A program made the translations under genes and the position numbers. Positions 2,699-59,783 of a DNA stretch of 64,000 nt are shown here, piece after piece. The notes under the pieces are model-generated. The model saw only the letters and a list, made by a program, of their open reading frames with translations. It ran no database searches and had not been told where the DNA came from. The stretch lies in contig OZ024750.1 in the NCBI GenBank assembly GCA_964016885.1, positions 20,336,001 to 20,400,000 of the forward strand, written 5' to 3'. The DNA comes from Eledone cirrhosa (taxonomy: Eukaryota). Within the stretch, counting starts at the first letter, position 1. Each line of letters begins with the position of its first letter.

Positions 2699-2922
2699 AT
2701 ATATATATATATATATATCCAGGTAGTGTAACGCGGATTTACTGTAGGTTCACCCGGGTGAACACTCCGTGTTTTCGAGGTGTAGAGCTAGAAGGAGTTT
2801 AATATAATTATGTCATTACTACTACAGATGTCCGACGCGCCTTTGATTCCAGAAACGTGCGTCACCAAACAATAAATGTAATGGAGTAACCATTCGTCCT
2901 CGTATTATCATTATAATATAAG

Positions 2923-3110
2923 GGCGGTGGATTGGAGAATCGGTAGAGGGTGAGATGCCATGCTTTGCAGCATAGAGTTACGGCCCTTATGATCTGAGTT
3001 CAAATCCTGCCAAGGTTAACTTTGCCGTTCATCCTTACGGAGTCGATAAAATAAAGTACCAGTAATGCACTGGTATAATTTCTGGACTTGTGCCAAGAGT
3101 AGAAACAATT
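2923..3110 (+). mobile_element. tRNA-derived SINE, full length (~190 bp)
   Basis: A-box-like tggagaatcgg, B-box gagttcaaatcc, conserved core and (att)n tail; about 15 copies in the window. Confidence 0.92.
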
Positions 3111-3400
3111 ATTATTATAATTATATAAATATATATACACAGTATATATGTGTATGTATGTATGTCAGATCGTAGCCGCTATTTAAGTCTAATTTGCGGC
3201 TCTAAAGAATTGCATACAGACTGAACTGATACCCAGTTAAGTGTCTATGCACCTCTTTCAACCCTTTTCCTCTACACATCCCTTTTATTCTCTCTCACTA
3301 ACTATATTTGATACCATACGTGGCAGCTTACTTTGAGCTGACGAAGGAGCGTACACATTGAATATTATGTATAGAAGTATACGATAACAGCATTATAAAA

Positions 3401-3587
3401 GGCGGTGAATTGGCAGTATCGGTAGAGGGTTGGACGTCATGCTTTCTAGCATAGTTTCGTCCCTTTACGGTCTGAGTTCAAATCCCGCCGAGGTTAACTT
3501 TGCCTTTCATCCTTACGGGTTCGATAAAATAAAGTACCAGTAATGTACTGGGTAATTGCTGGCCTTGTGCCAAATGTAGAAACAATT
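3401..3587 (+). mobile_element. tRNA-derived SINE, full length
   Basis: A-box tggcagtatcgg, B-box gagttcaaatccc. Flanking 10-bp direct repeat atattatgta at 3362-3371 and 3588-3597. Confidence 0.92.
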
Positions 3588-4762
3588 ATATTATGTACTT
3601 GATTCTTTGAAACGTGTTTCCTAGAATTATCGTTTGGCAAATAAAAGCATTCTATTTACAAACACTTTAAAGATGAGAAAATGTATATTTGTGTACGTAC
3701 GCTTGTGTGCGTGTAAGGGTTCGTTTATGCCTTGCAGCCTAGAGATTCGAAACGAGAGATGAATAGTAGAACTGCGACACGCGGAAGAAATAAATGAGGT
3801 GGATATGATCGACTAAAATATTCGTAGGCGATGTTGACCCATGCCCATTTATATCCATATATGTAAACACCCACACATGCGCGTGTGCGTATGATTATGA
3901 GGGCAAAATACAAGTTTTGTTATTAATCGGCTATTCAAACCTTTCTCTAATGTTACTATACTATATATTTTGTGTTTACTTTATATTCCTAGTTCAGAAT
4001 ATTTCTACACTGTCCTGTAAATAACTGTCATGCAGTTTGCATAACTCTTTCCTAATTATAAATGCCTTATATTTATGATTCATACTAAAGATTATGAAAT
4101 ATTCATAGCGTTCTACAGGTGTGATTGATATGAGGTAGTAGCAGTAAATTCTAATATATTATCAATTGTCATAGAGCTGTCTTAGGAATTGCAGATTATT
4201 TCATACAAGAAATCTCTCCCTCACTCTATTCTCTGTATAATATAAAACGAAGGGAAGATGAAAATTGGAAAACGAAATGAAAATTAGAGAAAGACGGAGA
4301 ATATGATTTGGTGCCTGTTTCCTCAACGTGACCAATGAAGCTTCCGCTTCAAATGCAATATTCTTAGTAGTAGCTTATTATCGGGCATATTTTTCTGACG
4401 ATTATTCATAGACGTGGTAGCATTTATTGGTAGTATATAACCAAAACCAATTTTAAACTAACAAGAGGAAAGGTGTCAAGATTTTACAAGATAGTGTAAG
4501 ATGAAATGGGATAGAAAGAGATTGGGTGAGATGTATTCTGAAATATAATGTAAAAGGAAAGAAAATCTTCAAATGGGAGAAATTAGTGATAAGATGATAT
4601 TGTTGGTTTCGCTCATATGAGTATTTTCTTTGTTCGTTATATTATTTTCTTTGATAGATTTCACTAAAGAACACATACAAATATACTCTTCATTATTGTA
4701 AACCAATATATACGTATAACAGTTTGGTCTAACTGCCAACGTCAGCAGTAGTATAGTAGTAA

Positions 4763-10206: not shown

Positions 10207-10810
10207 GTCAGGTCACCACTTGGTGCTACTGGTAACCTGTATCCCAGTGCAACCTGTCACATGGTCGGGTCGTTGGCGACTAAACTGGAAACCCCACTAA
10301 GGTTTATTGGTGAGGAGGGTGACTTTGGACATCCTGCAGGACTAAAAGCAAAACCTGTCAAACGGCAAAGGAGCTCTTAAGAGTCAATGGCCATCCAAAA
10401 TTACCGGGAGAGATGACCCCTTAGCCTTTGTCAAGGCAGAATTCTAGAAGAAGGAAAACTCTGATATAACACCTGCAACACTGATGGTATCCAATGATGT
10501 TGACTTGTTCTTCTTTTTGGTAAATATCATCTTGGTTAAGAGAGTGGGACTGGCTTTGTGCAGTGCCTGTGCTCACTATAAAAGCTTCACGGCACAGGCA
10601 TTGCTTTATATCTGGAAATCTCTCTGCACTTGTCGTCACATAGTACCATGGGCCTAGCACTATGTGTCAATAATTGTCACATGTGTAGTGTTTGTACCAG
10701 AGTTTTCAAGTCGCTGGCTGGACTAAGGTCACATTCGTTCAGCGCATCGGTAGGAGTTCTCCTACATGGATATAAAGTAGTGGCCATACTCGAAAACGAG
10801 TTGGCAGCCA

Positions 10811-10812
<2 letters not shown>
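10207..10812 (+). mobile_element. Non-autonomous RTE-clade derivative (5'UTR-like part fused to ORF 3' end)
   Basis: Encodes [17 protein letters not shown] (10684-10734), like the C-terminal CxxC..GL.SH finger of RTE ORFs. It has a terminal stem-loop ctcg-aaaa-cgag and a second copy at 11390-11944. Confidence 0.65.
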
Positions 10813-11389
<577 letters not shown>

Positions 11390-11944
11390 GGTGGCTGCCA
11401 ACTCGTTTTCGGGTACCGCCACTACTTTATATCCATGTAGGAGAACCCCTACCGATGCGCTGAACAAGTGTGACTTTTTAGTCCAACCAGAGACTTGAAA
11501 AGTCTGGTACAAACACTACACTTGTGACAATTATTGACACATAGTGCTGGACCCATGGTACCATGTGAAGTCAAGTGCAGAGAGATCTCCAGATATAAAG
11601 CAATGCCTGTGCCGTGAAGCTTTTATAGTGAGCACAGGCACTGCACAAAGCCAGTCACACTCTCTTAACCAATATGATATTTACCAAAAAGAAGAACAAG
11701 TGAACATCATTGGATACCATCAGGGTTGCAGGTGTTATATCAGAGTTTTCCTTCTCCTAGAATTCTGCCTTGATAAAGGCTAAGGGGTCATCTCTCCCGG
11801 TGATTTTGGATGGCCATTGACTCTTAAGAGCTCCTTTGCCCTTTGACAGGTTTTGTTTTTAGTCCGGCAGGATGTCCAAAGTCACCCTCCTCACCAAGTA
11901 ACCTTGGTGGGGTTGCCAGTTTAGTCGCCAACGAGCCGACCATG
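11390..11944 (-). mobile_element. Second, inverted, slightly 5'-truncated copy of the RTE derivative
   Basis: Reverse complement of 10260-10812 with scattered substitutions. ORFs 10421-10660(-) and 11544-11783(+) are near-identical translations. Confidence 0.85.
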
Positions 11945-12433: not shown

Positions 12434-12482
12434 ATATATATGTGTATATACATGTGAATATATGCATATATATATATAATAT

Positions 12483-12779
12483 AAAACAGAAAATCAGTGA
12501 TGCCTCTTAACTCAATGTATTGTTAATTACAATTGTTTCGCCGGCGGACAGCTCCAGAAGCGATCATTGTGTGGATCTGTCTGATTACGGACCCGCAGGT
12601 TCGACGGACACGTCTAATGATTACGGAGCTGTCCGCCGACGAAACATTTGTAACACACAATAAATTGAGTTCAGCTGCATCACTGATTTTTCGTTTTCTA
12701 TTCCATCATACTCTGCTCGCTAAGAGCATAGAGTACTCAACCGGCATACCGCCTATGGAAGCATTTTAGCTACCATCAG

Positions 12780-17582: not shown

Positions 17583-17806
17583 AGTAATAATAATAAATTT
17601 GAAGACTAAAATCCAAAGAGGGCTCGATAAGGATAAATATATATCAAATATATAAGAACCGTAGAGCAAATATTTATTAAAATAACAGATTAAAGTTTAA
17701 GCAAAGAATCGCATGCTTTCACCCTTAACGGGATCTTCAGAAGATCCCGTTAAGAGTGAAAGCAGCGATTCTTTGCTTAAACTTTGATCTGTTATTTTAA
17801 TAAATA
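17583..17806 (-). mobile_element. Fold-back element family E (tail + palindrome centred at 17739, hammerhead-like core)
   Basis: Palindrome ~17672-17806. Minus strand CTGAAGA-TCCCGTTAAGGGT-GAAA. Other full copies at 26605-26823 and 58882-59100. Confidence 0.8.
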
Positions 17807-18512
17807 AATGAATATATATATATATATATATATATTATAATTGTTTTCTCAACGCTGTGGCTTGCTACCTAATATTTGAAATCCTACTCTAATATTGGTT
17901 ATACATACACTGTATATGCTAGTGGTACTCTTCTTTCGGTGTATGGTTAAGTTTATCAGACCTACATCATCAACTTTATATACAGAAACGAGTTGGTTTT
18001 TGAAAGGTAGACAATCAATTTCTCGTGGATTATTCAAGAAAGTAAGCTTTCTTGAATATTCTAATATATTGTTTGTTATATACTGCAGTGTATTTAATCT
18101 ATATTATATTCTATTACTGGTTTCGGAGATTAACCATGGTGTACATCATTTTGAAAGTGTTTAGTGTTTCAAACACTGATCGTAGAAAAGTAATATATAT
18201 TTCAACTAAATGTATACATTTGTAAACAGCTTATATATGGTCCAGTATGTGCACATGAGGTAGCTTCCTAGTTGACATAATCGTAAAACTGGCCATGCGT
18301 ACGGTGCGGGTTTGCAACTGAGCATATTTATACGTCAGCTAGTTATTATATTGCATTGGATGCCCAGTGGAAGTAGCAGTGTTTCCACGGATTCCCTCGA
18401 TTTAGATTCCCTGGGAAAGAAAAGAAACTGTTGTTCAGATTAATTAATGTTTAAACATGTAATCAAAACGAAAGTGGGAGAAAATTTGAAAAAAATAACT
18501 ATATATATATAT

Positions 18513-19040: not shown

Positions 19041-19151
<111 letters not shown>

Positions 19152-19198
19152 AACACAGACAGCCACACAGACAGCCACACAGACACATACACACACAC

Positions 19199-19235
<37 letters not shown>

Positions 19236-19238
<3 letters not shown>

Positions 19239-19688
19239 GATATTAAATAAATGGAAACTATATTTATAAAACCATATTTATTTCATTATATATATTTCAG
19301 GGATATCATATTAACAATATGCTATGCCTTCCTCAGACAAAATACAATATAAACAGTTTTATAGATAAATAGATTTGACATACTGTACAACATCGACTTG
19401 TATTTGAAAAGTTGAATTGCCAATTCAACTTTTCAAATACAAGTCGATGTTGTACGGTATGTCAAATCTATTTATCTATAAAACTGTTTATATTGTATTT
19501 TGTCTGAGGAAGGCATAGCATATTGTTAATATGATATCCCTGAAATATATATAATGAAATAAATATGGTTTTATAAATATAGTTTCCATTTATTTAATAT
19601 CGTAAATATTATCCAAATACTTGTCGAGTGCTTTTATATCAGTTATAAATATTTACTAGTTGTAACCCAACAATTTAAATATAACTTT

Positions 19689-19690
<2 letters not shown>
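19236..19690 (+). mobile_element. Fold-back element family A: 184-bp near-perfect palindrome + tail, in (TA)n
   Basis: 19236-19419 vs 19421-19604, 1-nt spacer, one mismatch seen. Tail 19605-19690. Confidence 0.9.
19496..19561 (+). ncRNA. Minimal type I hammerhead ribozyme motif (mirror copy 19279-19344, minus strand)
   Basis: TATTTTGT-CTGAGGA-AGG..CATATT/AATATG..CCT-GAAA-TATATA-TA-ATGAAATA. Helices I and II pair and helix III is palindromic. Predicted cut after A19553. Confidence 0.8.
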
Positions 19691-19729
<39 letters not shown>

Positions 19730-20033
19730 TGGTTTGGATGAAACAATTGTAAGCTAATAAATGCTTTGAACATAGCTTTGATTCATGTAATTTCTATATG
19801 ACTGCTCTGTAGAACAATTGATGTTATTACATTGAGCTATTTATCTTACTGGTAATAACGTAGTAATAAATTACTGTCTTTCACTGTTTAGGGTTTAAAA
19901 TATATATAATTATAAAAAGTTTTAGTAAATACATAACCATAAATAGTATCCTTAATACTATATATATATATATTTCGTTTCTGAATTTGTTTAGCAAGAT
20001 GCTTTATCTGAAAACCTGTGTTGAAACCGATAT

Positions 20034-20735: not shown

Positions 20736-21023
20736 CACGTTACCTTATGTTGAGTGAATGTTAAATTTGAATTTATGTCAGCTAACAGTATGCTAAGTAG
20801 TAAAACATGCGTTTGACAACTTGGTTGAAAGATTGAAGCATATGAACCCCTAAAGACGAAAGGCGGTGGATTGTATCACCTGCATGAATATAAAGTAGAC
20901 TACCGACATATGGCTGGTATTCTTTTCCTACGAGCATCTCTATTCCCATTCTTCTACTCTAGGGTGTTTAATGCCGAACTGAACTGACTATTTGAAAGTC
21001 AAATCTGCGTTGCATCAGTTTAA

Positions 21024-21197
21024 GTATCGGTAGAGGGTCGGACGCCATGCTTTCCAGCATAGTTACGTCCCTTTATGATCTGAGTTCAAATCCCGCCGAG
21101 GTTGACTTTGCCTTTCATCCTTACGGGGTCGATAAAATAAAGTACCAGTAATGCACTGGGTAATTTGCTGGCCTTATGCCTAAAGTAGAAACAATTA
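21024..21197 (+). mobile_element. tRNA-derived SINE
   Basis: Core and tail match the family. Confidence 0.9.
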
Positions 21198-21225
21198 TTT
21201 AAGTTTTGGTCTTCTATATACTTAA

Positions 21226-21372
21226 ATAATTGTTTCTACTTTTGGCACAAGGCCAGCAATTATCCCTGTGTATTATTGGTACTTTATGTTATTGGACCCC
21301 ATAAGGATGAAAGACAAAGTTAGCCTCGGCGGGATTTGAAATTAGACCGTAAAGGACCGTAACTCTATGCTA
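21226..21372 (-). mobile_element. tRNA-derived SINE, inverted
   Basis: Reverse complement of the core; mirror of 21376-21511. Confidence 0.88.
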
Positions 21373-21375
21373 CAA

Positions 21376-21511
21376 AGTAGAATTACGATCCCTTACGGTT
21401 CAAATCCCGCCGGGGTTAACTTTGCTTTCATCCTTATGCGGTCGATAAAATAAAGTACCAGTAATACACAGGGATAATTGCTGGCCTTGTGCCAAAAGTA
21501 GAAACAATTAT
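21376..21511 (+). mobile_element. tRNA-derived SINE, partial
   Basis: gttcaaatcccgcc core and gtagaaacaatt tail. Confidence 0.88.
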
Positions 21512-21992
21512 TTAAGTATATAGAAGATCGAGAATATTCTCGACAGAATCTGGAATCATGATGCAGAGAATGGGAACCACTCTACTTCCCGTTGAAATAA
21601 AGCTGCTAAATCATCTAATTTTGTCTGGATATGGTAACTTTCCATTTCAATTTAAAATATCCTCTTCTGATTCTGTGTGCTAATGGTGCTTACGCACCCA
21701 CAATTTGATATAACAATAAGCATGTTTTATCATTATACCTATCTATATATCTATTCATATTCTGATGGTAACATTTTCAAAAAATCTGCTATGTAGGAGA
21801 CGTTATTTTGCTTTCATTTCCTCATACCTTATCCATTTCTTTCATCTCCTTAATTTTTTTCCTCTTCTGAATTTACTAACAATTCTTCCCTTCCTGTTCT
21901 TCTTAGATTATCTGCTGTTAGGCTGAGAGAAGCGAGAGCCTGCGTGTGAGAAATAGTCTGTGCGAGAGAGAGGGAGTGTGTGTTTGTTTGTA

Positions 21993-24645: not shown

Positions 24646-24723
24646 AAGGGAGAGAGCTTGCTTTGTTTGTGTGTATGTATAATATATACACATATATATG
24701 TGTGTGTGTGCTTGTGTGTGTGT

Positions 24724-25028
<305 letters not shown>

Positions 25029-25161: not shown

Positions 25162-26151
25162 GATTTCTTTTATTTGCCACTAGGGCATCAAAAGTGGGAC
25201 AAGTACAAAGGGGGGAGTTTACACAAAAAGGCGTCCTCAATAAGGAGGAGGCAATAACAAAATATAAAAATAAAATAAGATATAACAAAAAATAAAATTT
25301 TTAACAAAATCCTCAATAGAGAGGAGGCGCCTTGGGGGGTCGCACACACCCCCGAAAAAAGTGTGCAACCCTTCTCCTCAGGAGCACAGAGAAGGGGTGC
25401 TCCCTTGGTCTTTCATCTTCCTCACCTATAGTCTGATGTAGAGTGAAGGCCCATTCACACAGGCCATTCTCGCCACTTTCACCCATCTTTCATAGAAACG
25501 GCTGGGGTGCAGCACCTCTCTCTCCATCCTGATCCTTCTTCCGAAATGATATCGGAAGAAACGGACCAGTTGTTGGCCAGAGAGAAAGGTGCCCGACCTC
25601 AGTCCTTTCAGACGCGTCCACCATACAACCTCTTTCGCCATGGCTATTACGCACAGAAACACCGCCTCTGCTTCATCTTTGAAGGGGGGAGGCGGCTTGA
25701 TCATTACAATAGACTCGGTGGTCAACCGGATCGGTCCCACCCTTGACAGCAGTTGTTCGACATAGCCCCACAGATCGGCTACGCCCGAGCAGTGTACTAA
25801 TGCGTGTGCAACGGTTTCCTCGTCGCACACGCATCTGGGACAGATCTTTTTGGCGGGGTCCCTACCCGGGCGCCCGTGTCTGTAGAGCCTTTCTCGAACG
25901 GGTAAAGCCCCTCGGTAGCACTGCCAGGCCAGGGACTTCTGGAAGTTGTCCATAGGTCCCGGGCTGAATGTCCTACCGAACAGGCTGGCCAGTTCGTCCT
26001 CCTCCATGTCTAGGGCTTCTCCGAGGGCGTCGTCGCACCTGCTGCGTACCAGCCCTCTATAGAATGTTGCGGTGGAGTCTCCACTGATAACCGGATCCGC
26101 CTGCCAGAGGGCGGTGAGCGCCTGGGCACACTCAGTGTGCCAGGCGCCCAG
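25162..26151 (-). mobile_element. 5'-truncated Tx1/L1-clade LINE (ORF2 C-terminus + 3'UTR) inserted in (TA)n
   Basis: GC-rich island. Open frame with CPRCVCDEETVAHALVHC (zf-RVT CCHC). AATAAA near the 3' end; TA repeats on both sides. Confidence 0.88.
25426..26151 (-). CDS. Partial LINE ORF2 C-terminus with zf-RVT zinc knuckle (no true start)
   Basis: About 241 uninterrupted codons with LPVRERL..CPRC..EETVAHALVHC..W motif. The ORF-track start lies beyond the flanking TA repeat. Confidence 0.8.
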   Translation of the reverse strand: MGAWHTECAQALTALWQADPVISGDSTATFYRGLVRSRCDDALGEALDMEEDELASLFGRTFSPGPMDNFQKSLAWQCYRGALPVRERLYRHGRPGRDPAKKICPRCVCDEETVAHALVHCSGVADLWGYVEQLLSRVGPIRLTTESIVMIKPPPPFKDEAEAVFLCVIAMAKEVVWWTRLKGLRSGTFLSGQQLVRFFRYHFGRRIRMEREVLHPSRFYERWVKVARMACVNGPSLYIRL

Positions 26152-26408
26152 TATATATATATATATAGGCAAAATGATTAATGAAAAAGTTACAAGCCAT
26201 TAAAACATATCTTTATGAAGCTTGTAACTCTTTCAACTCTTTCATTAATCATTGTGCCTATCACCCTCTATTTATCCTTGTACACTAAATATTAACCTCC
26301 TCTAACATTTAAACCTGATAACCCATGCATGGGGCACTTATGCACCCGCTGTTCTTTCTATCCTCTTTTACGATACTGTAACTTTATATATATATATATA
26401 TAGTAATA

Positions 26409-26590
26409 ATTGTTTCTACTTTTTGGCACAAGGCCAGCAATTACTCAGTGCATTACTGGTACTTTATTTTATCGACCCGGTAAGGATGAAAGGCAAAGTC
26501 AACCTCAGGGGGATTTGAACTCAGATCGTTGAGGCACGTAACTATGCTGGAAAGCATGGCATCCGACACTCTACCGATACTGCCAATCCA
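26409..26590 (-). mobile_element. tRNA-derived SINE, full length
   Basis: Reverse complement of A-box, B-box, core and tail. Confidence 0.92.
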
Positions 26591-26604
26591 TATATATATA
26601 TATA

Positions 26605-26823
26605 GTATTAATAATAAATTTGAAGACTAAAATCCAAAGAGGGCTCGATAAGGACAAATATATATCAGATATATAAGAACCGTAGAGCAAATATTTACTA
26701 AAATAACAGATTACATGTTAAGCAAAGAATCGATGCGTTCACTCTTAACGGGATCTTCTGAAGATCTGTTAAGGGTGAAAGCAGCGATTGTTTGCTTCAA
26801 CTTTAATCTGTTATTTCAATAAA
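26605..26823 (-). mobile_element. Fold-back element family E copy
   Basis: Collinear with 17583-17806; centre gatcttc-t-gaagatc at 26759. Confidence 0.85.
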
Positions 26824-26847
26824 TATATATATATATATATATAATAT

Positions 26848-27272
26848 AAGATCAAAAGATGGTTAAAGGAGTTCCATGTATTTTATTATGCGCATTTCAA
26901 AAACAAACATCATCATGCAATAATATTTGTGTTTTCATCAGATAAAACAGGAGAACATGATATGAAGGCTAAAAAACACTTGTGGATAGTGCAGTTTTAA
27001 ATCAACATATCAACATATATGTTGATTTAAAACTGCACTATCCACAAGTGTTTTTTAGCCTTCATATCATGTTCTCCTGTTTTATCTGATGAAAACACAA
27101 ATATTATTGCATGATGATGTTTGTTTTTGAAATGCGCATAATAAAATACATGGAACTCCTTTAACCATCTTTTGATCTTCTATTATGTATACTCCAGTCC
27201 TACAAACTGTAGAGTGCTTCTTATCCGATATCTGCATTGCTTTATTGTACTACAATAAAACTCACCTCCTAC

Positions 27273-27273
<1 letters not shown>
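26848..27273 (+). mobile_element. Fold-back element family B: ~163-bp perfect palindrome + tail, in (TA)n
   Basis: 26848-27010 vs ~27017-27179, no mismatch seen. Tail 27180-27273. Confidence 0.9.
27080..27146 (+). ncRNA. Minimal type I hammerhead ribozyme motif (mirror copy 26881-26947, minus strand)
   Basis: TTTTAT-CTGATGA-AAACACAAA...TTTGTTTTT-GAAA-TGCGCA-TA-ATAAAA. Helix I 6 bp, palindromic helix III ATGCGCAT. Predicted cut after A27140. Confidence 0.85.
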
Positions 27274-27337
<64 letters not shown>

Positions 27338-27759: not shown

Positions 27760-28359
27760 AGCTTTATTTACGGTTCGTACACAATGTTCTGGCAGTGTTC
27801 TCGGGTAGGAATTCTATTAGGTATACTCTCATATTCTCTGATGTTCATATGGTACTGATGTCCTTATGACATTCTAAAGACACTGTCGTGTTACATGACT
27901 TGCCCAGTGAAACTTAAACATGTTTTATCCTACCCCACGCTAAGTTCTTAAACACCCGTTATTTTCCAGGGACATACAGAGACAGATAGATATAGAGAGA
28001 GAGAGAAAGGGAAAGAGAGACATAGAGAGATAAGGAGATAGTGAGGCAGAGAAAAAGGAAGATAGAGTTAGAAAGATTGCGAGAGAAAGAAACATATAGT
28101 GAGTAATGAGTTAATCACATTGAGGAGGAAATGACAGTGGTAGTTTAATTGTCAAACAGGAAATACCGAAAGGTAAGGTTAGCATTTGAACTGAAACAAG
28201 AAACTCTATGCTAACTGATAACATGTTATACATGCACGCATGAACCAAAAAATAATGAAGCTCTTTTGTTGAAATGTATTTACATTTTTACTGTGTATCT
28301 CATGTTTCGCAGCAGGCTGGCTCAAGTTCACCAATCAAGGCTATGGAAATAACTTCATT

Positions 28360-28628
28360 ATTACGGGGTCGATAAAAATAAAGTACCAGTAATGCACTGG
28401 TTAATTGGTGGCCTTGTGCCTAAAGTAGAAACAACTATTACTATGGTGGATTGGCAGGATCGGTAGAGGGTCAGACGCCATGCTTTGCAGCACAGTTAAT
28501 TCCCTTTACGAACTGAGTTCAAATCCCGCCGAGGTTAAGTTTGCCTTTCATCCTTACGGGGTCGATAAAATAAAGTACCAGTACTGTACTGGGTAATTTC
28601 TGGCCTTGTGCCAAAAGTAGAAACAATT
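28360..28628 (+). mobile_element. Tandem SINEs (3' fragment 28360-28438 + full copy 28445-28628)
   Basis: Two successive core/tail matches. Confidence 0.9.
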
Positions 28629-28861
28629 ATTAATATGCTTTTTGGACTATTTCAACAAAATATGTTTGATTGTGTGTGAATCAGCAGTCTAAAGAGCAGA
28701 TCAATAATTGAATCATGTCAATAATTTGTGTGGATGACATTGAGCCAATTATCTGCTAAAGATGCGTGACATATCGATACACAATAAGAAAACTAAATGC
28801 ACGTAAACGAAAGTGCATAGTCATTCTTAATATATAAAGTGTGTCGGCGCATCTATTGCTG

Positions 28862-28921
<60 letters not shown>

Positions 28922-29205
28922 AGAGAGGGAGAGAGAGATATAGTGCTAGATATGTATGTGTGTGTCTTTGTAGATATACGCATGCATACATACATGCATA
29001 CCTACATACTTTCATACAGTTACATAAATACAACGATAGTGCAACATAGTCTAAAATTATCAATGTATATATACTCATGTGTGAGGAAATAGGTTACTTG
29101 TTTGTCTGATAGATTTTCAGTAAGTTTTAAAATGAAGTCTTTTGAACATTTTCCACAAATATTTGATGTATATATTGTATAATCATTATACTGTTTTTCA
29201 GTATG

Positions 29206-29393
29206 GGCGGTGGATTGGCAGTATCCGTAGAGGTTCGGACGCCATGCTTTGACGCATAGAGTTACGGCCCTTGCCATTCTGAGTTCAAATCCCGCCGAGG
29301 TTAACTTTGCCTTTCATCCTTACGGGGTCGATAAAATAAAGTGCCAGTAATGTACTGGGAATTTCTGGCCTTGTGCCAATAGTAGAAACAATT
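29206..29393 (+). mobile_element. tRNA-derived SINE, full length
   Basis: A-box, B-box, core and tail all present. Confidence 0.92.
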
Positions 29394-29758
29394 ATACTGT
29401 TTTTCAACAAGGTCGTCTTGTTTTCAATTTAAGAATATAAAAGGGAGGCAGTATTTACTTATTCTTGTAAACTAGCATATTTAAGACTTCAAATATATGT
29501 TTACATTTGTTTCAGTGTGAGAGTAACCAATAACAATTTTCCCAAATTGAATTTTGGTTAAATTTCTAGAAAATTGATATTTACATGGAAACTGTTTCTA
29601 ATATAAGGAAAAGAGTCATTCATAAAATGCATTATTTACATAAAACAGACAAATTCTCTATGAGTTTTAGGTATTGACTATATATCACTTACTTAGTGTC
29701 GGCAAAAACAAACGGAAGCAACTGACAGATGTTTCTCGTTTGTTAACGGTTATATATA

Positions 29759-29815
<57 letters not shown>

Positions 29816-29816
<1 letters not shown>

Positions 29817-30158
29817 CTTCAAAATGTTAACAAATATAGACATTTGTGTGATCAAGTATGTTTTATTAGACATATTTCAGAGGTACTGAGCTATCTTCAA
29901 CAGTATGTCCTCATCAGATACAATAAGATGATGCATGACATACCCTGACTTAGTAGATGGTTAAGATTCAGTCATCGTAGTGAATAATATATGACAAAAC
30001 ACACGCACCCTCTGCAGTATATGTAAATGTTTTCATGTCTCAATCTTAAGGTATATAAATATTGAGTTTTGTCATATCTTATTCATTACCATGACTGAAT
30101 CTTCCAATCTATTGTAAAACTCATTCTTTGATTTATTCATTGAACCTTGTTTAACCTT

Positions 30159-30161
<3 letters not shown>
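29816..30161. mobile_element. Family C copy (inverted arm with hammerhead 29861-29925 on minus strand + tail)
   Basis: 29816-29980 matches 35237-35403; 30095-30161 matches the tail at 35600-35667. Confidence 0.8.
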
Positions 30162-33937: not shown

Positions 33938-35081
33938 ATATATAGGCATATATATGTATGTATGAGTGTATGTATGTATATTTGTGTGTATGTGTGTGTG
34001 TCTATATGTGTATTGTGTGTTCAAGTGGACTTGAGAAATACCAAACCCAGCATGAATTCATTGAAGTGTGTCAGCCAGAGGGTAACGGATGGACAGCCTG
34101 ACTGCAACTATTGGCCAGAATTTATGATGACGTGGAAAAACAACAGCCAACAGCAGGACAAGCGAGGAAGATGTTTTTTGACGCTAACACCCAGTGAGAA
34201 ATTTTGGTCCGGAATTATTGCCTGTGTCCGAAGAACGTTCAGTTTCCAGAATCAGAGAGATTCATAGAATGATCGTGTCACGAGCTTTCTGCCGGCGAAA
34301 CAATTGTAACACACAATAAATTGAGTCCAGATGCATCACTGATTTTTCGTTTTATATCATATATATATATATATTCACGTGTATATCTATAGTGTCAACT
34401 AGAACTTGAGATTACCTTCTCTTTTTCTCTTTCTTTCTTTTTCCGGAAAGTACATATATACTTATGTATTTTTGAAGTTTTATCTCAGGTTTTGGTATAT
34501 CGACCTAAGAATTTTTAAACTAAGCATATGGTCATTATTTTTCACACATTATATATCTATGTCCCATTCATGAATATTGATATTTACATTATAATACCCA
34601 ATTGATAATTCAAATTGATAGGACATAACGTAAAGTTGTAAATCTGCCATCCTTCTCTCTAGATATAGCTCTTTCTTCCCCTCCCTCTATACATGATGAA
34701 ATTTAAGTATCGCTGTTTTCTCTTTATTTATTTTTTTTATTTCTCTCCGTCTCCTTAACACTATAACTAAATAAATAATTAAATAAATAATTACTCCCAC
34801 CCTCCTAAATCTCTCAATTTGTATGATGAATTATTATTATTCATCTGTTGCCTCAGCTGCCTCTCATTTTTCACCCCCTCACTATTTTTCTCTCTCCCAT
34901 ATCTCTCTCTATCTCTCTCTGTTTTTCTTTACATACATTTATTCCTTCTCTCCGTCTTTCTTTCTAACTGTGCTTAACACTAAATATTTACAAACATTTC
35001 ACTACCAAACCAACTTTTTAAATGGAAGTTGATCAATATTTATGGTACGTCAAATTTATTTATAAAACTGCTTATATATTA

Positions 35082-35147
35082 TATTTTATCTGAAGAAGGC
35101 ATGCCATATTTTTAATATGGCATCCCTGAAATATGTATAATGAAATA
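35082..35147 (+). ncRNA. Hammerhead ribozyme motif, family A second copy (arm 35040-35190)
   Basis: TATTTTAT-CTGAAGA-AGG-C-ATGCCATATT-ttt-AATATGGCAT-C-CCT-GAAA-TATGTA-TA-ATGAAATA; perfect 10-bp distal helix II. Confidence 0.85.
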
Positions 35148-35187
35148 AATATGGTTTTATAAATATAGTTTCCATTTGTTTAATATC

Positions 35188-35235
<48 letters not shown>

Positions 35236-35240
<5 letters not shown>

Positions 35241-35666
35241 TTCAAAATATTAACAAAATAGATATTCTTGTGATCAATTATATTTTATTATACATATTTC
35301 AGCGGTACCGAGTTAGTTCAACAATACTGTCCTCATCAGATAAAATAACATGATGCATGACATACCCTGACATAGTAGATGGTTAAGATTCAGTCATGGT
35401 AGTCTACTATGCCTGAATCTTAACCATCTACTATGTCAGGGTATGCCATACATCATCTTATTTTATCTGATGGGGACGTACTGTTGAACTTAACTCAGTA
35501 CCTCTGAAATATGTATAATAAAATATAATTGATCACAAGAATATCTATTTTGTTAATATTTTGAATTAATATTAATAACTGTGGAAAACATTTCTATGCT
35601 GAGTGCTTCCAATCTATTGTGAAACTCATTCTTTGATGTATTCATTGAACCTTGTTTAACCTTTAA

Positions 35667-41809: not shown

Positions 41810-41814
<5 letters not shown>

Positions 41815-42026
41815 TAAGAGGAATTCCAACTTTGTCTGATTTACTCGTTTTATTTACAATCCTTTAAAATATATAATGGTATTATAATGAAATAGTATGA
41901 TAGAATATTAAATTCTAAGTGTTAATTGAACAAGTACTTTCATGCTTTCGCAATCTTCAGGTTCATAATATGTGGTGACAGTCGAGTTTGCAATTTTCAA
42001 CTGTGAAAATTGCAAACTCGACTGTG
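41810..42026 (-). mobile_element. Family H copy with hammerhead (41927-41965, minus) and short terminal fold-back
   Basis: Reverse complement of 46082-46277; ends in the hairpin acagtcgagtttgcaattttca-actg-tgaaaattgcaaactcgactgt. Confidence 0.85.
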
Positions 42027-42062: not shown

Positions 42063-42509
42063 TATATATTGGTAAACGGAATAGAAAATGCTGACAAATT
42101 GTTCACAGTTGAAAAATGGTTTAATTAGGAATAAAAGAGTAATAGTGATTGTATGGGTTAGTATTCAGTTGTGGTTTTAAGTTTTTAAGTTTTTACCGGT
42201 TGCGCATTTCTAAATGCTTTTCAAAAATAATTTTGAGATTGAGTGTCCGTGCTATTTGCTCTGAGCAAACAGATCAGAGCAAACAGCACGGACACTCAAT
42301 CTCAAAATTATTTTTGAAAAACATTTAGAAATGCGCAACCGGTAAAAACTTAAAAAACTTAAAACCACAACTGAATACTAACCCATACAATCACTAATAC
42401 TCTTTTATTCCTAATTAAACCATTTTTCAACTGTGAACAATTTGTCAGCATTTTCTATTCCGTTTACCAATATATAATAACTCGTGTGTTACACCTCTAT
42501 TCTTTTAAC
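42063..42509 (+). mobile_element. Fold-back element family G: ~200-bp palindrome + tail
   Basis: 42063-42264 vs 42274-42476. Core TTGAAAA-(G/A)CATTT-ag-AAATGC-GCAA-CCGG-TA. Confidence 0.88.
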
Positions 42510-43614: not shown

Positions 43615-43929
43615 TATTTTGAGTTCAAATCCCGCCGAGGTTATCTTTGTCTTTCATCCTTATGGGGTCGATAAAGTAAAGCACCAGTAATATACAGGGG
43701 TAATTTCTGGCCTTGTGCCCAAAGTAGAAACATTTATTTTTAGTGGTTTGGCACTATCGGTAGAGGGTCGGACGCTATGCTTTGTAGCAAAGAGTTACGG
43801 CCACTTATGGTCTGAGTTGAAATCCCTCCGAGGTTTACTTTGTCTGTCATCCTTACTAGGTCGATAAAATAAAGTAGAAGTAATGTAGTGGAATACTTGC
43901 TGGCCTTGTGCCAAAAAGTAGAAACAATT
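43615..43929 (+). mobile_element. Tandem SINEs (43615-43733 and 43744-43929)
   Basis: Two core/tail matches. Confidence 0.88.
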
Positions 43930-44389
43930 ATTTTGAGGTAAAAATATAAAGCATTACGTCATTACTAGCCTCGCTTCTTAATGATTATCCTTCTCTAACT
44001 ACTTATTTCTCCTCTGTGGTCAGACCTGAGGAGAGGGACGATAGGATACCTACGTCTCGAAAATTTAGTGTTCTTGGATAGAAGTACGGAAATTGAAAAG
44101 TACGAACATGTGTGTGATGAAGCAATATCCTACCCTAAGGCTTGAGAAAGATTTTTCTATGCAGAACTACAGTGGCTGGTTGTTAGCTTCATCTAATTGC
44201 CTCATTATCCATAACTATTTCCCAGAAATTGTACTTCAGTATGTGTCTTTTAACATGCTGAAAAGTGAATCTTCAGTTTTTTAACCACAAATCATATACC
44301 GATTAAGAGGTTTTCCATGACATCTCAAATCCTTATTTTTCTTCTTCGCACACTTATTCCCGAGAGAGTCAATGAGACAGAGTCCTCAA

Positions 44390-45659: not shown

Positions 45660-46081
45660 TATAGATAGGTAAATATACACGGGTGTGTATGATTGTGTAT
45701 AGAAGATTATATTAATAAGAGGAATTCCAACTTTGTCTGATTTACTCGTTTTATTTACAATCCTTTAAAATATATATAATGGTATTATAATGAACAACAA
45801 CAACAACAACAATAATAATAATAATAAAAGTGATGTTGATGGTGATGATTAATAGAAAATGCTATTTTCATCATTTCAAAAAAGCAAAACAATTGATACG
45901 TTGGATATGACTATTGGTCGTTAGCATGCTCAACCAGCCGTGACGCTTAAACCAATCAGCTGTAGTAATTCAGTGAAACTACACACTGATTGGTCGAAAT
46001 ACAGTTTACAGGGCTTTGCATTCTGGAGCCACTTTTCTCTGTATAAAATGTATAAAAGGTAGGAAATTTACCCATCTCATT

Positions 46082-46273
46082 ACAGTTGAAAATTGCAAAC
46101 TCGACTGTCACCACATATCATGAACCTGAAGATTGCGAAAGCATGAAAGTACTTGTTCAATTAACACTTAGAATTTAATATTCTATCATACTATTTCATT
46201 ATAATACCATTATATATATTTTAAAGGATTGTAAATAAAACGAGTAAATCAGACAAAGTTGGAATTCCTCTTA

Positions 46274-46277
<4 letters not shown>
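46082..46277 (+). mobile_element. Family H element
   Basis: Copies at 41810-42026(-), 45714-45793(-, tail only) and 59551-59758(-). Tail ends abut or lie near TA repeats. Confidence 0.85.
46121..46159 (+). ncRNA. 39-nt minimal hammerhead motif (family H)
   Basis: TGAAC-CTGAAGA-T-TGC-GAAA-GCA-T-GAAA-GTAC-TT-GTTCA: helix I 5 bp, GNRA-capped helix II, palindromic helix III AGTACT. Confidence 0.75.
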
Positions 46278-49479: not shown

Positions 49480-49831
49480 AGAAAGTGAGGTTTTTTTTAC
49501 AAAATGAAAAATAACCGAGGTGTCCTACACGAGTGAAAGTATAAAGAAAAAGAGATGAAATCGAAAATGCAACTGGAGTCTTATTTTTTTTAAAAATATA
49601 TATATTTATTTGGTTCCTTTACCGGTTTCGCAGTTCTTCTGCTTTTCAAAAGGTGAGTTGAGATGGAGGGTCTGTGGATTTTCTCACAGATGTGAGAAAA
49701 ACAACAGACCCTCCATCTCAACTCACCTTTTGAAAAGCAGAAGAACTGCGAAAACGGTAAAGGAACCAAATAAATATATATATTTTAAAAAAAATAAGAC
49801 TCCAGTTGCATTTTCGATTTCATCTCTTTTT

Positions 49832-49838
<7 letters not shown>
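49480..49838 (-). mobile_element. Fold-back element family F: ~149-bp palindrome + tail on the left
   Basis: 49540-49688 vs 49691-49838; tail 49480-49539; (TA)n on both sides. Confidence 0.9.
49616..49653 (-). ncRNA. Variant (U3-A8) minimal hammerhead motif (mirror copy 49726-49763, plus strand)
   Basis: CCTT-TTGAAAA-GCAG-aagaa-CTGC-GAAA-CCGG-TA-AAGG: all three helices pair; GUA site. Confidence 0.78.
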
Positions 49839-54809: not shown

Positions 54810-54947
<138 letters not shown>

Positions 54948-55008
54948 TAAAATAACAGATTAAAGTTTAAGCACCTATGTATATACACCTATATATATAG
55001 ACCTAAAA

Positions 55009-55618: not shown

Positions 55619-56053
55619 TGATGTTGTCTGTGTGTGTGTGGCCTCATCTTTTCAAAGTCTATACAAATCCACATTGACTTCAAACTTGCATTTATATAGG
55701 CCTTGCGGTCTAACGATATTAACTGCAGCTTATATTTTCAATTTTCTGTTGTTAAAGGGGTGTTAGACGCCAGTTATCCATCTCAGTCGCGCTCTTATAA
55801 TATATGTCTGTATGCCTGCTGTCTGCATTACGACATTCTGACAAACATTGATGACGTATTATGTTCGCTATTATCCTTTCATTGCCAGGGAACGTCTTCA
55901 CGAACCACAGTATCGTCTTCCTGTTTACCTTCGGTTGCAACGATTTTCGAAATATTTCCTTCTGCGTTCATAGATTGATGCTTTTAGTTTGAGCTGATGC
56001 CGTTAAGGGTGAAAGCAACGATTCTTTGCTTAAGCTTTAATCTGATATTTTAA

Positions 56054-56762
56054 TCTATATATGCATATATATATAAAACTGAGGAAGTATGTATGTATGT
56101 ATGTATGTATGTATGTATGTATGTATGTATGTATGTATGTATGTATGTATGTATGTATGTATGTATGTGTGTGTGTGTGTATGAAACGCGACGTACCCAA
56201 CCAATCTTTTTCAAACTTTACATGTGTATTACTTATATTTCAGGGAGTTTTATGCACATGAAAAATTCTACTTTTTGATCCCTTAGGTGAAAAACTGCGT
56301 TCTTTTCCAGCTTTTTATAGATTTTTTTAGGCTTTACGTGAGACCGATTTCCTTGAATTTGTAACTATGTATTAGCCAGTCTCTTTATCATACAGTGAGC
56401 AAAGAAAATTCAACTTTTTTAAGGCCTAGGGCCCATATTAGCTGGAAAACTTCAATTTTTTCAGCTTTTTATGGTTTTTCTGAGGTGTTACATCTAGCCG
56501 ATTACCCCGAAATTTCAAGGTAATCGGCTAGATGTAACAAGCAATAAGAAAATTCATTTTCCTGATTCCCTAGGGCCCGCATTAGGTGAAAACCTGCTTT
56601 TTCCTGCTTCATCGAGAAAAATCTTAGATTACCCAGTCATCAGAATATTCGGTTTATTTTCTTTACATATTGTCCAGGCATGCAGTTTTTCCAGGATTAG
56701 GTCTGTTGGCGGCCCGCGTTCCAAAATACCTTATCCCGTGCAACGCCGGGTACCACTGCTAG
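56054..56762 (+). mobile_element. Non-autonomous Helitron (~710 bp)
   Basis: A|TC start, 5' (TATG)n tract, internal subrepeats (tagggccc..attag), subterminal hairpin cccg-tgcaacgc-cggg, CTAG|T end, no TSD. Confidence 0.85.
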
Positions 56763-56953: not shown

Positions 56954-57394
56954 CGTGTGTGTGCGCGTGTGCTATGTTTGTGAGTGTGTGTGTATATAAA
57001 GAAAGTCGTCAAGTGCAGGAATGCTAAACATAGCTTTAAAAATGTGGCGAACACCCTTAAAGAACGGAAATTGCCATCGACCGCTATGAGGAATTGGAAC
57101 CCATATCTTCCGGATACCGACACAGGTTGGCTCAAGAATTCAGGAAACTCACTTTTCCAGATTGCTGGTCTTGATTAATATGAATTAGTGGGCTTTCTTC
57201 AAGAACACGTTTCATCGTTCCAAGATAGTGGACTCTTACCCATATATTATAAAAAGTAAGCCTCATAACTTCACATTTAACTATGATATCTGGGATAAAT
57301 CTCAACCATTCAATTAAGCAGTGTCTTATTAATAAGTTTGTAGTATTTATGTCTTCAAAATAGGGAACGTAAAAACGGAATTAGACTACAAATA

Positions 57395-57531
57395 ATTGTT
57401 TCTAGTTTTTGGCACAAGGCCAGCAAATATTCCAGTACATTACTGGTACTTTATTTTATCGACCCCGTAAGGATGAAAGGCAAAGTTAACCTCGGCGGGA
57501 ATTGAACTCAGATCGTAAAGAGACGTAACTA
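57395..57531 (-). mobile_element. tRNA-derived SINE, partial
   Basis: Reverse complement of core and tail. Confidence 0.9.
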
Positions 57532-57900
57532 TAAATAATAACAAGATTTTAGTGCCTAAATTCCCAATGTGGATACTACATTTTTCCCTGTTTCAAAATA
57601 CATTGGTTTGGCGATGTTTGATTATTTGTATATTGTCTTTATTCCAGAATTTAAGCTGAGTAATTCAAACACACGCATATATGATAGAAATATAACAACA
57701 CGTGTCAGCAGTTTTTTCATATCCAAACACATTTTGCAAAGGATAATTACGTTATTTTTTTCTTTTCAGAATGAATATTCAGGTGTGTGTATATATCTAA
57801 GAACAGCAGCAGAAACTCACACCAACACACACACAAATATATATATATTTATTTATATATTGTTTGTGTGTGGATGTATCTGTAGAAGTTCTTGTGAGTA

Positions 57901-58615: not shown

Positions 58616-58749
58616 GCCTATCAAAGTTATTTCAGAACACAATGAAAGGAATCCAGTTCCTCAGAGAAATAACAACACAACCAGGAGCTGGACATATAGT
58701 AAAACACACTTCAAAAACATGTGTACTTGTCTTTCCGACACCAATTCGG

Positions 58750-58804
58750 ACTGCCTGAAGAGGTCACAGCCAACGATAGCTGTTACCGAAATATATATAG
58801 CAGT
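58750..58804 (+). ncRNA. Type I hammerhead ribozyme motif (family I)
   Basis: ACTGC-CTGAAGA-GGTcACAGC-caacgata-GCTGTtACC-GAAA-TATATA-TA-GCAGT. Canonical G10.1-C11.1 pair. Predicted cut after A58799. Confidence 0.85.
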
Positions 58805-58881
58805 ATATCTATAATTTATAATAAACGAAGCCAAATGTTATATACTTGACTTAATTATTTTATATATATATATATATATAT

Positions 58882-59096
58882 ATTTATTAAAATAACAGAT
58901 TAAAGTTTAAGCAAAGAATCGCTGCTTTCACCCTTAACGGGAGTTTCAGAAGATCCTGTTAAGGGTGAAATTAGCGATTATTTGCTTAAACTTTAATCTG
59001 TTATTTTAATAAATATTTGCTCTACGGTTCTTATATATTTGATATATATTTATCCTTATCGAGCCCTCTTTGGATTTTAGTCTTCAAATTTATTAT

Positions 59097-59100
<4 letters not shown>
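58882..59100 (+). mobile_element. Fold-back element family E copy
   Basis: Palindrome centred at 58948 plus the same tail as 17583-17670 (reverse complement). Confidence 0.85.
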
Positions 59101-59139
<39 letters not shown>

Positions 59140-59550
59140 TGTGTAGAAGCTGTAGAGATTCGTGTGTGTTTTTGTACCCCTTCGTATTTGAAAGAACATG
59201 CATTTTCATTACAGGTGGGGGAGGGGGGATATTATAATCAAACAGATTAATAAAATTTTAAAAAAGTACCTCCCTAACTAGAACACCTGTATAGTCAATG
59301 GTATGATTGTACTTATCCTGTATTCTCTATTATATATATAAATATATAGTCTTCAAATTTATTATTATTACTACATATATATATATATATGTGAAGTAAT
59401 TCCATCGGAAAAGTCCAGGAAAAAAAGAGTGCTCTATGTATGCAACAGAGCTTAATTATTATTATTATGTAATAAACAACATGTTATGTTGTTTATTACA
59501 TAATAATAATATATATATATATATGCAGATATATATATATATACATATAT

Positions 59551-59758
59551 ATTAATAAAAGGAATTCCAGCTTTGTCTGATTTACTCGTTTTATTTACAA
59601 TCCTTTAAATGTATAATGGTATTATAATCCTTTAATGTATAATCGTATTAGAATGAAATAGTATGGTACAATATTAAATGTTAAGTGTTAATAGAACAAG
59701 TACTTTTATGCTTTCGCAATCTTCAGGTTCAAATGTGGTGACAGTCAAGTTTTCAATG
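59551..59758 (-). mobile_element. Family H copy, degenerate (GAAA mutated to AAAA)
   Basis: Collinear with 41810-42000; internal duplication at ~59625-59650. Confidence 0.8.
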
Positions 59759-59783
59759 TTGAATATACACACACGTGTGTATT

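Follow-up and report, generated by a model that had tools for sequence, protein, structure and literature searches.

The window, by which we mean the whole stretch of 64,000 nucleotides analyzed here, is AT-rich (GC 25–41% per 2 kb) and dense in microsatellites (132 TRF rows); we take it to resemble intergenic or intronic DNA of an animal, possibly an octopus. The insert under study has a simple order: (TA)n, an untailed arm, a tailed arm with its 86-nt tail, and (TA)n. The two arms form a palindrome of 369 bases (19236–19604), near-perfect as the preliminary description of this DNA had claimed, in which 184-bp arms flank the center C19420 with a single mismatch on self-comparison. The lone mismatch, T19384 facing G19456, is a C-to-T change at a CpG.

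Each arm is a 5′-truncated element end. The untailed arm (19236–19419, minus strand) is the reverse complement of 19421–19604 with 1 mismatch; it reads outward and has its short end at 19236–19238. The tailed arm (19421–19604, plus strand) is 83% identical to 35005–35190 (blastn, E 7.5e-52). Between them lies the one-base center of the head-to-head junction (19420, plus strand), where template comparison finds that the family base agrees with the tailed arm. No hairpin precedes this center in the family sequence; upstream of 19420, the sister copy and the loose ends in dataset X14 run on as unrelated, non-palindromic sequence. The tail (19605–19690, plus strand) is present on one arm only and is family sequence rather than host flank: in each of the 4 datasets compared, numerous reads and contigs of the family cover it. 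On the left, the unstranded (TA)n run at 19200–19237 (TRF, 19 copies) takes in the outermost 2 bp of the palindrome; on the right, an unstranded (AT)n run follows at 19691–19725 (TRF, 17.5 copies). The left run is likely one part of a split target microsatellite.

A type I minimal hammerhead motif, identified by structural scan and family alignment, lies on the tailed arm (19496–19561, plus strand), with a predicted cut after A19553. On the plus strand, helix I pairs 19496–19503 with 19554–19561, the catalytic core occupies 19504–19510 and 19542–19545, helix II (19511–19541) consists of 3 bp, a C.C mismatch, and a long stem with a G.A break, and helix III (19545–19552) is 8 nt long and self-complementary. 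The core is complete: CUGANGA, GAA, A15.1-U16.1, and H17 stand around 3 helices. The untailed arm holds the mirror copy (19279–19344, minus strand; core start 19336, predicted cut after 19287), found by the structural scan and by a covariance model match of 76.4 bits that mirrors a training sequence.

The sole other copy of the 19236–19604 element in the window is the sister copy at 35005–35190 (plus strand, blastn), which is 83% identical and consists of one untailed arm, without a mirror half, ending at (TA)n. Identity between the two copies rises from 72% upstream of the hammerhead to 88% within it and 98% downstream. The preliminary description had this copy running from 35040 to 35190 and stopping at the boundary of the inverted arm at 19236; the end base beside (TA)n is indeed the same, but the copy begins at 35005. 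Its hammerhead (35082–35147, plus strand) has an intact helix II and folds with z -2.72. Comparison with 19496–19561 gives 8 differences over 66 nt, of which the preliminary list held 4, all correct. The core differs only at N7 (G19508 versus A35094), helix II shows a compensatory change at 19517/19535 (A-U here, G-C in the sister copy), and helix I swaps G.U for A-U at pair 19502/19555 (G.U here); the structural scan also places the predicted cuts at A19553 and A35139, as claimed. Missing from that list were the helix II pair 19518/19534, a G.A mismatch here and C-G in the sister copy, and changes in loop II (19525) and helix III (19549). The 2 copies therefore yield 1 clean compensatory pair. 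The probability that 4 stem changes land on 2 facing pairs is P = 0.009, a value that speaks for coordinated change, which either selection or hairpin-templated repair could produce.

The covariation cited in favor of the ribozyme fold is thus real but thin when drawn from 2 copies; it is much stronger across families. A structural scan for type I hammerheads gave 8 matches in the window versus 2 in total across 30 local shuffles. Four families share one design (19494 and 35080; 35281, 35457, and 29859; 27076; 58745), which runs from helix I and CUGANGA through a helix II base of 3 bp, a pyrimidine mismatch, and a long stem to GAA and a self-complementary helix III of 8 nt. An alignment of 7 rows from these families shows pairing in 90.5% of 147 cells and double changes in 14 of 21 pairs, with most of the helix I double changes stemming from one row. 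Slid versions pair at 31–56% and 0 of 500 shuffles equal the real value, a count that is not a probability; the structure was drawn from the same 7 rows, and 2 of these are arms of one insertion. Among the variant rows listed from public reads and contigs (40 of 72), 12 fall within the motif or its mirror and none at the 11 invariant core positions. At the level of sequence, these comparisons support a conserved hammerhead fold.

Rfam at gathering level returned 0 matches across the whole window, and at E up to 10 it returned 128 sub-threshold matches in 17000–47000, mostly miRNA hairpins, with no hammerhead among them; the combination of a long helix II and a minimal helix III may lie outside the Rfam hammerhead models. 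A miRNA reading of these sub-threshold matches was rejected. Our own covariance model gave 9 strong matches, all of them training copies or mirror arms; the next stood at 18 bits (E 0.12), and no new members were found.

To place the insert in its family (family A), 19150–19760 was compared with 4 public datasets: X1 and X14 from organism A, X5 from organism B, and X6 from organism C, where X1 is possibly the source of the window itself; runs X7–X12, which have small shares, were set aside. Family A is very abundant in organism A (X1, X14), present in B (X5), and faint in C (X6). Its outer ends are two and fixed. At about 19609, many records pass from the element into (AT)n (5496 reads in X14, with 23 contigs from X1 and 3 from X5); others carry the tail, and both end types are present in reads. 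The common end is known to within a few nucleotides, since element and flank both read TA there. The inner ends vary. Depth in X1, which is not a copy number, drops about 50-fold from 19570–19590 to 19423–19443, with divergence adding to the drop. Of the listed joints that skip sequence (14 of 21), 11 are mirror-symmetric to within 16 nt and occupy other positions; palindrome centers are therefore made anew while the outer ends stay fixed. The family thus combines variable 5′ truncation with fixed 3′ ends. The preliminary description had proposed a fixed priming or nicking position, and the fixed end is indeed seen in reads; an RNA-side start site is more likely than a DNA nick, because it fits the 2 fixed reverse transcription (RT) start sites published for a Penelope-like element (PLE) (PMC11167929).

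The same listed joints may cluster near the predicted hammerhead cut. Left-arm ends fall at +4 to +18 after the predicted cut in 9 of 14 and at -58 to +3 in 0 of 14; the visible range ends near +21, and if the other 7 joints fell in the gap, the deficit versus about 10 expected of 21 would mostly be gone. Through an extended helix I, the upstream stretch is 77–80% like the left arm at an alignment threshold of 80%, and joints could be misplaced there. A literature search, made mostly without subscription journals, returned no paper with a cut-site junction footprint or a two-ended join.

Fold-backs of this kind recur in the window. From a self-comparison, 12 of them, belonging to about 9 families, were picked for examination. 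A script found a one-sided extra of 40–98 nt in 10 of the 12; the eleventh (49480–49834) has a tail of about 64 nt by eye, the script having halted at an internal TA run, and the twelfth (41978–42025) is short and differently shaped. Arm identity among fold-backs with the same layout ranges from 73% to 98%. Neither a conserved tail motif (9 tails, 38% column identity) nor a tail hairpin (3 folded tails, z -0.6 to -1.3) was supported.

Several of these fold-backs carry hammerheads. A second hammerhead palindrome at 26844–27274 has arms of 97.7% identity; its one-sided tail measures 91 nt, and 8 nt are duplicated at its center. A third family comprises 35238–35666, where A9 is replaced by G in the right arm at 35467, and 29814–30161, in which the arms are unequal, a spacer is present, and one hammerhead has been taken out by an internal deletion. 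Three members of one further family (17584–17811, 26605–26822, and 58884–59099) have their centers inside the CUGA core, with helix I lost; the center base flips relative to the tail, and shorter pieces of the family lie at 2401–2444, 54940–54973, and 55996–56064. Another family, found at 41812–42025, 45713–45794, 46082–46276, and 59553–59763, ends at (TA)n and has a very small hammerhead whose palindromic helix III measures 6 nt; among its copies is an inverted pair set 400 nt apart by a spacer. At 58745–58860, a lone hammerhead built to the design of family A and closed by a G-C pair ends at (TA)n and adjoins another fold-back.

Two weakly related palindromes, 42070–42509 and 49480–49834 (about 75% over 70 nt), have tails of about 40 and 64 nt; the hammerhead scan found none in either, and they are possibly Naiad-like ends. 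Older or shorter fold-backs at 24713–24922, 12479–12779, and 59391–59508 have one-sided tails of 58–78 nt, and in two of them (GT)/(AC) repeats flank the tail. A 257-aa open frame with a zf-RVT domain (25429–26199, minus strand; E 4.6e-6) is likely the end of a LINE ORF2. Inverted repeats of 555 bp (10260–10812 and 11390–11944, 94%) have long degenerate TA runs between and around them. A dispersed repeat family of 180 nt, SINE-like by size, lies at 2919–3118, 3401–3597, 21023–21527, 26404–26589, 28354–28636, 29202–29396, 43616–43950, and 57385–57551; 21023–21527 holds 3 copies in alternating orientation.

The insert is likely a dead, 5′-truncated PLE end (a pseudo-LTR) inserted in a TA repeat. 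Our full reading, to which we give a probability of about 0.8, is that this is a PLE stump, probably built by priming from both strands of a cut repeat and joined head to head. Within it, the PLE identity is very probable, and toward two-ended priming we lean with some reserve. Membership is likely on the ground of anatomy, every test of which agrees with a PLE end. A Pfam scan of the 120 longer ones among the 290 filtered open reading frames (ORFs) of the window found 0 with a PLE RT or GIY-YIG domain, and 5 PLE motifs found 0 matches in the 6 frames of the window; truncated stumps are expected to have no RT/GIY-YIG ORF. Because there is no ORF in the insert, it cannot be assigned to a PLE clade (Neptune, Penelope/Poseidon, or Hydra). 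Phage, metagenome-contig, prokaryote-genome, and viral-contig collections gave 0 relatives with flanks.

Published PLE biochemistry suggests how such a stump could arise. An RT/GIY-YIG protein would cut both strands of (TA)n. One target end would prime at the distal RNA start site, corresponding to 19690, and give the tailed arm; the other would prime at the proximal RNA site, at about 19604, and give the untailed arm. We propose that both cDNAs then halt at roughly one place on the RNA, for which the simplest candidate is the 5′ end of a single broken molecule, before the two are joined end to end, head to head. Two cDNAs that reach the same RNA end would explain the near-exact symmetry; early stops would give unequal arms, as at 29814–30161, and unequal arms are also seen at 45713–46276.

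The main rival shares the PLE stump and differs in how it was made. A cDNA primed at the tail end might snap back, copy itself to the short end, and join the other target end, a route that we hold possible and doubtful. A near-perfect mirror with a one-base center is the outcome of folding back, and self-priming is the reading proposed for such junctions in the available text of Arkhipova et al. 2013 (PMC3846280). A single tailed cDNA folding back predicts the template base on the tailed arm in 5 of 5 centers. At the 5 readable one-base centers, it stands on the tailed arm in 2 (19420, in keeping with a snap-back, and 17739) and on the untailed arm in 3 (35403, 58948, and 26759), which favors two-ended priming; 3 of the 5 cases come from one family with a natural mini-palindrome center, where the template base was taken from the hammerhead core, and the copies are 5–20% decayed. 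In addition, the family A and family B templates offer no stem at the center on which to fold, and a snap-back leaves unexplained why lone copies such as 35005–35190 end at the same short end.

A further alternative is a non-autonomous unit of MITE-like or retrozyme-like kind that spreads as a whole palindrome. The long terminal inverted repeats and the one center shared by 17584–17811, 26605–26822, and 58884–59099 are what such a unit would leave. However, in family A the centers vary and the copies show a truncation gradient, the sister copy at 35005–35190 has no mirror half, the center base of the 3 shared-center copies flips relative to the tail, the ends are asymmetric, and head-to-tail tandem units are absent, so that we judge this reading improbable. 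A MITE or TIR DNA transposon proper was rejected: where symmetric ends and a constant internal length belong to such an element, we found a one-sided tail, variable centers, and a single-arm copy.

A host-selected ribozyme or hairpin RNA gene at the locus is very improbable. Its core is intact on both arms and the arms are nearly identical, but young age accounts for the near-identity, and the layout recurs elsewhere at 73–98% arm identity. Helix II is interrupted at 19518/19534, and folding of the motif at 19496–19561 does not exceed that of shuffled sequence (z +0.77). When the right arm is folded as a monomer, the helix I pair probability is about 0.001; when a transcript spans the palindrome, each of the 6 hammerhead pairs checked has probability 0 and the palindrome pairs with itself. 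On these folding models, a read-through transcript would be one long hairpin of dsRNA, not a ribozyme. The selection on RNA structure proposed by the preliminary description accordingly stands for the parent elements and fails here, on the broken pair, the z value, and the zero pair probabilities; the evidence supports selection on the source elements, not on this copy. The ribozyme would act in parent-element transcripts, probably as a dimer via helix III or with protein help.

An assembly or library fold-back artefact is scarcely credible: no aligned record in X1, X14, X5, or X6 crosses the junction at 19420, but a CpG difference tells the two arms apart, the tail rule is also followed by fold-backs whose arms have diverged, and mirror-type joints occur in public data of two studies (X1, possibly the source of the window, and X14).

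This likely PLE stump is mostly an ordinary locus. Its layout is already described for PLE ends, and it is a new family member; annotated plainly, it would be a truncated PLE end lying in a microsatellite. More can be learned from its surroundings than from the locus alone. About a dozen fold-backs of several families lie within 64 kb, so that a survey of the whole genome could test how integration of PLEs is completed and whether hammerhead cleavage takes place in vivo. Stumps of this kind score as sub-threshold miRNA-like hairpins and could be taken for MITEs or RNA genes. A bolder idea, which we consider unlikely, is that the palindromes record the missing integration step of PLEs, in which two cDNAs, primed from two target ends at the two RNA start sites, are joined at the 5′ end of one RNA, with tiny cut-centered palindromes arising when that end is the hammerhead cut. 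If true, the latter would count as in vivo evidence for cleavage of the insertion template by PLE hammerheads.

The closest known counterparts are insertions of endonuclease-bearing (EN+) PLEs. As far as the available text of two papers goes, these have an inverted 5′-truncated copy, a 30–40 bp tail that is often at one end, and a bias to microsatellites (Craig et al. 2021, PMC8557442), as well as palindromes at head-to-head junctions (Arkhipova et al. 2013, PMC3846280). The insert shares with them the head-to-head inverted 5′-truncated copy, the palindromic junction, the extension at one end, a (TA)n target without readable duplication, and a hammerhead near the end. It differs in holding no ORF and in its tail, 86 nt here and 40–98 nt across the window versus the published 30–40 bp. 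The excerpted text of Craig et al. calls the function of hammerheads in PLEs unclear.

The motif itself resembles metazoan PLE type I hammerheads. The portion of Cervera and de la Pena 2014 (PMC4209133) consulted describes minimal hammerheads with a palindromic helix III and low dimer activity, among them pairs on opposite strands 100–700 bp apart. The motif here has the same type I topology, a complete core, a long helix II, and a small palindromic helix III of a kind that suits dimers, and motifs likewise form opposite-strand pairs a few hundred bases apart. Against that description, helix I has 8 bp versus 4–5, and a pyrimidine mismatch common to four families here follows the first 3 bp of helix II. 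Family A also departs from the exact min-HHR consensus of that paper, with A-U versus G-C at pair 10.1-11.1 and no unpaired base between 9 and 10.1. Non-LTR retrozymes, as presented in part of a preprint (bioRxiv 10.64898/2026.07.22.740005), are likewise non-coding, PLE-related, and equipped with a type I hammerhead; they form head-to-tail tandem units, in contrast to the head-to-head pair of truncated ends here. A retrozyme was rejected for this locus, where copies are inverted or single and there is no head-to-tail hammerhead array.

Poseidon of Anolis (PAc) offers the biochemical counterpart. In the text available from Frangieh et al. 2024 (PMC11167929), both strands are cut and extended and 2 RT start sites bound the tail; cleavage by the hammerhead is dispensable in vitro, with no reads ending at the cut, and later integration steps are left unvalidated. 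That text does not treat palindromic junctions (0 matches for "palindrom"), and no ORF start overlapping the hammerhead emerged here. The insert and its family are like PAc in having two fixed outer ends that bound a tail, an AT-rich target, and a hammerhead upstream of the start sites.
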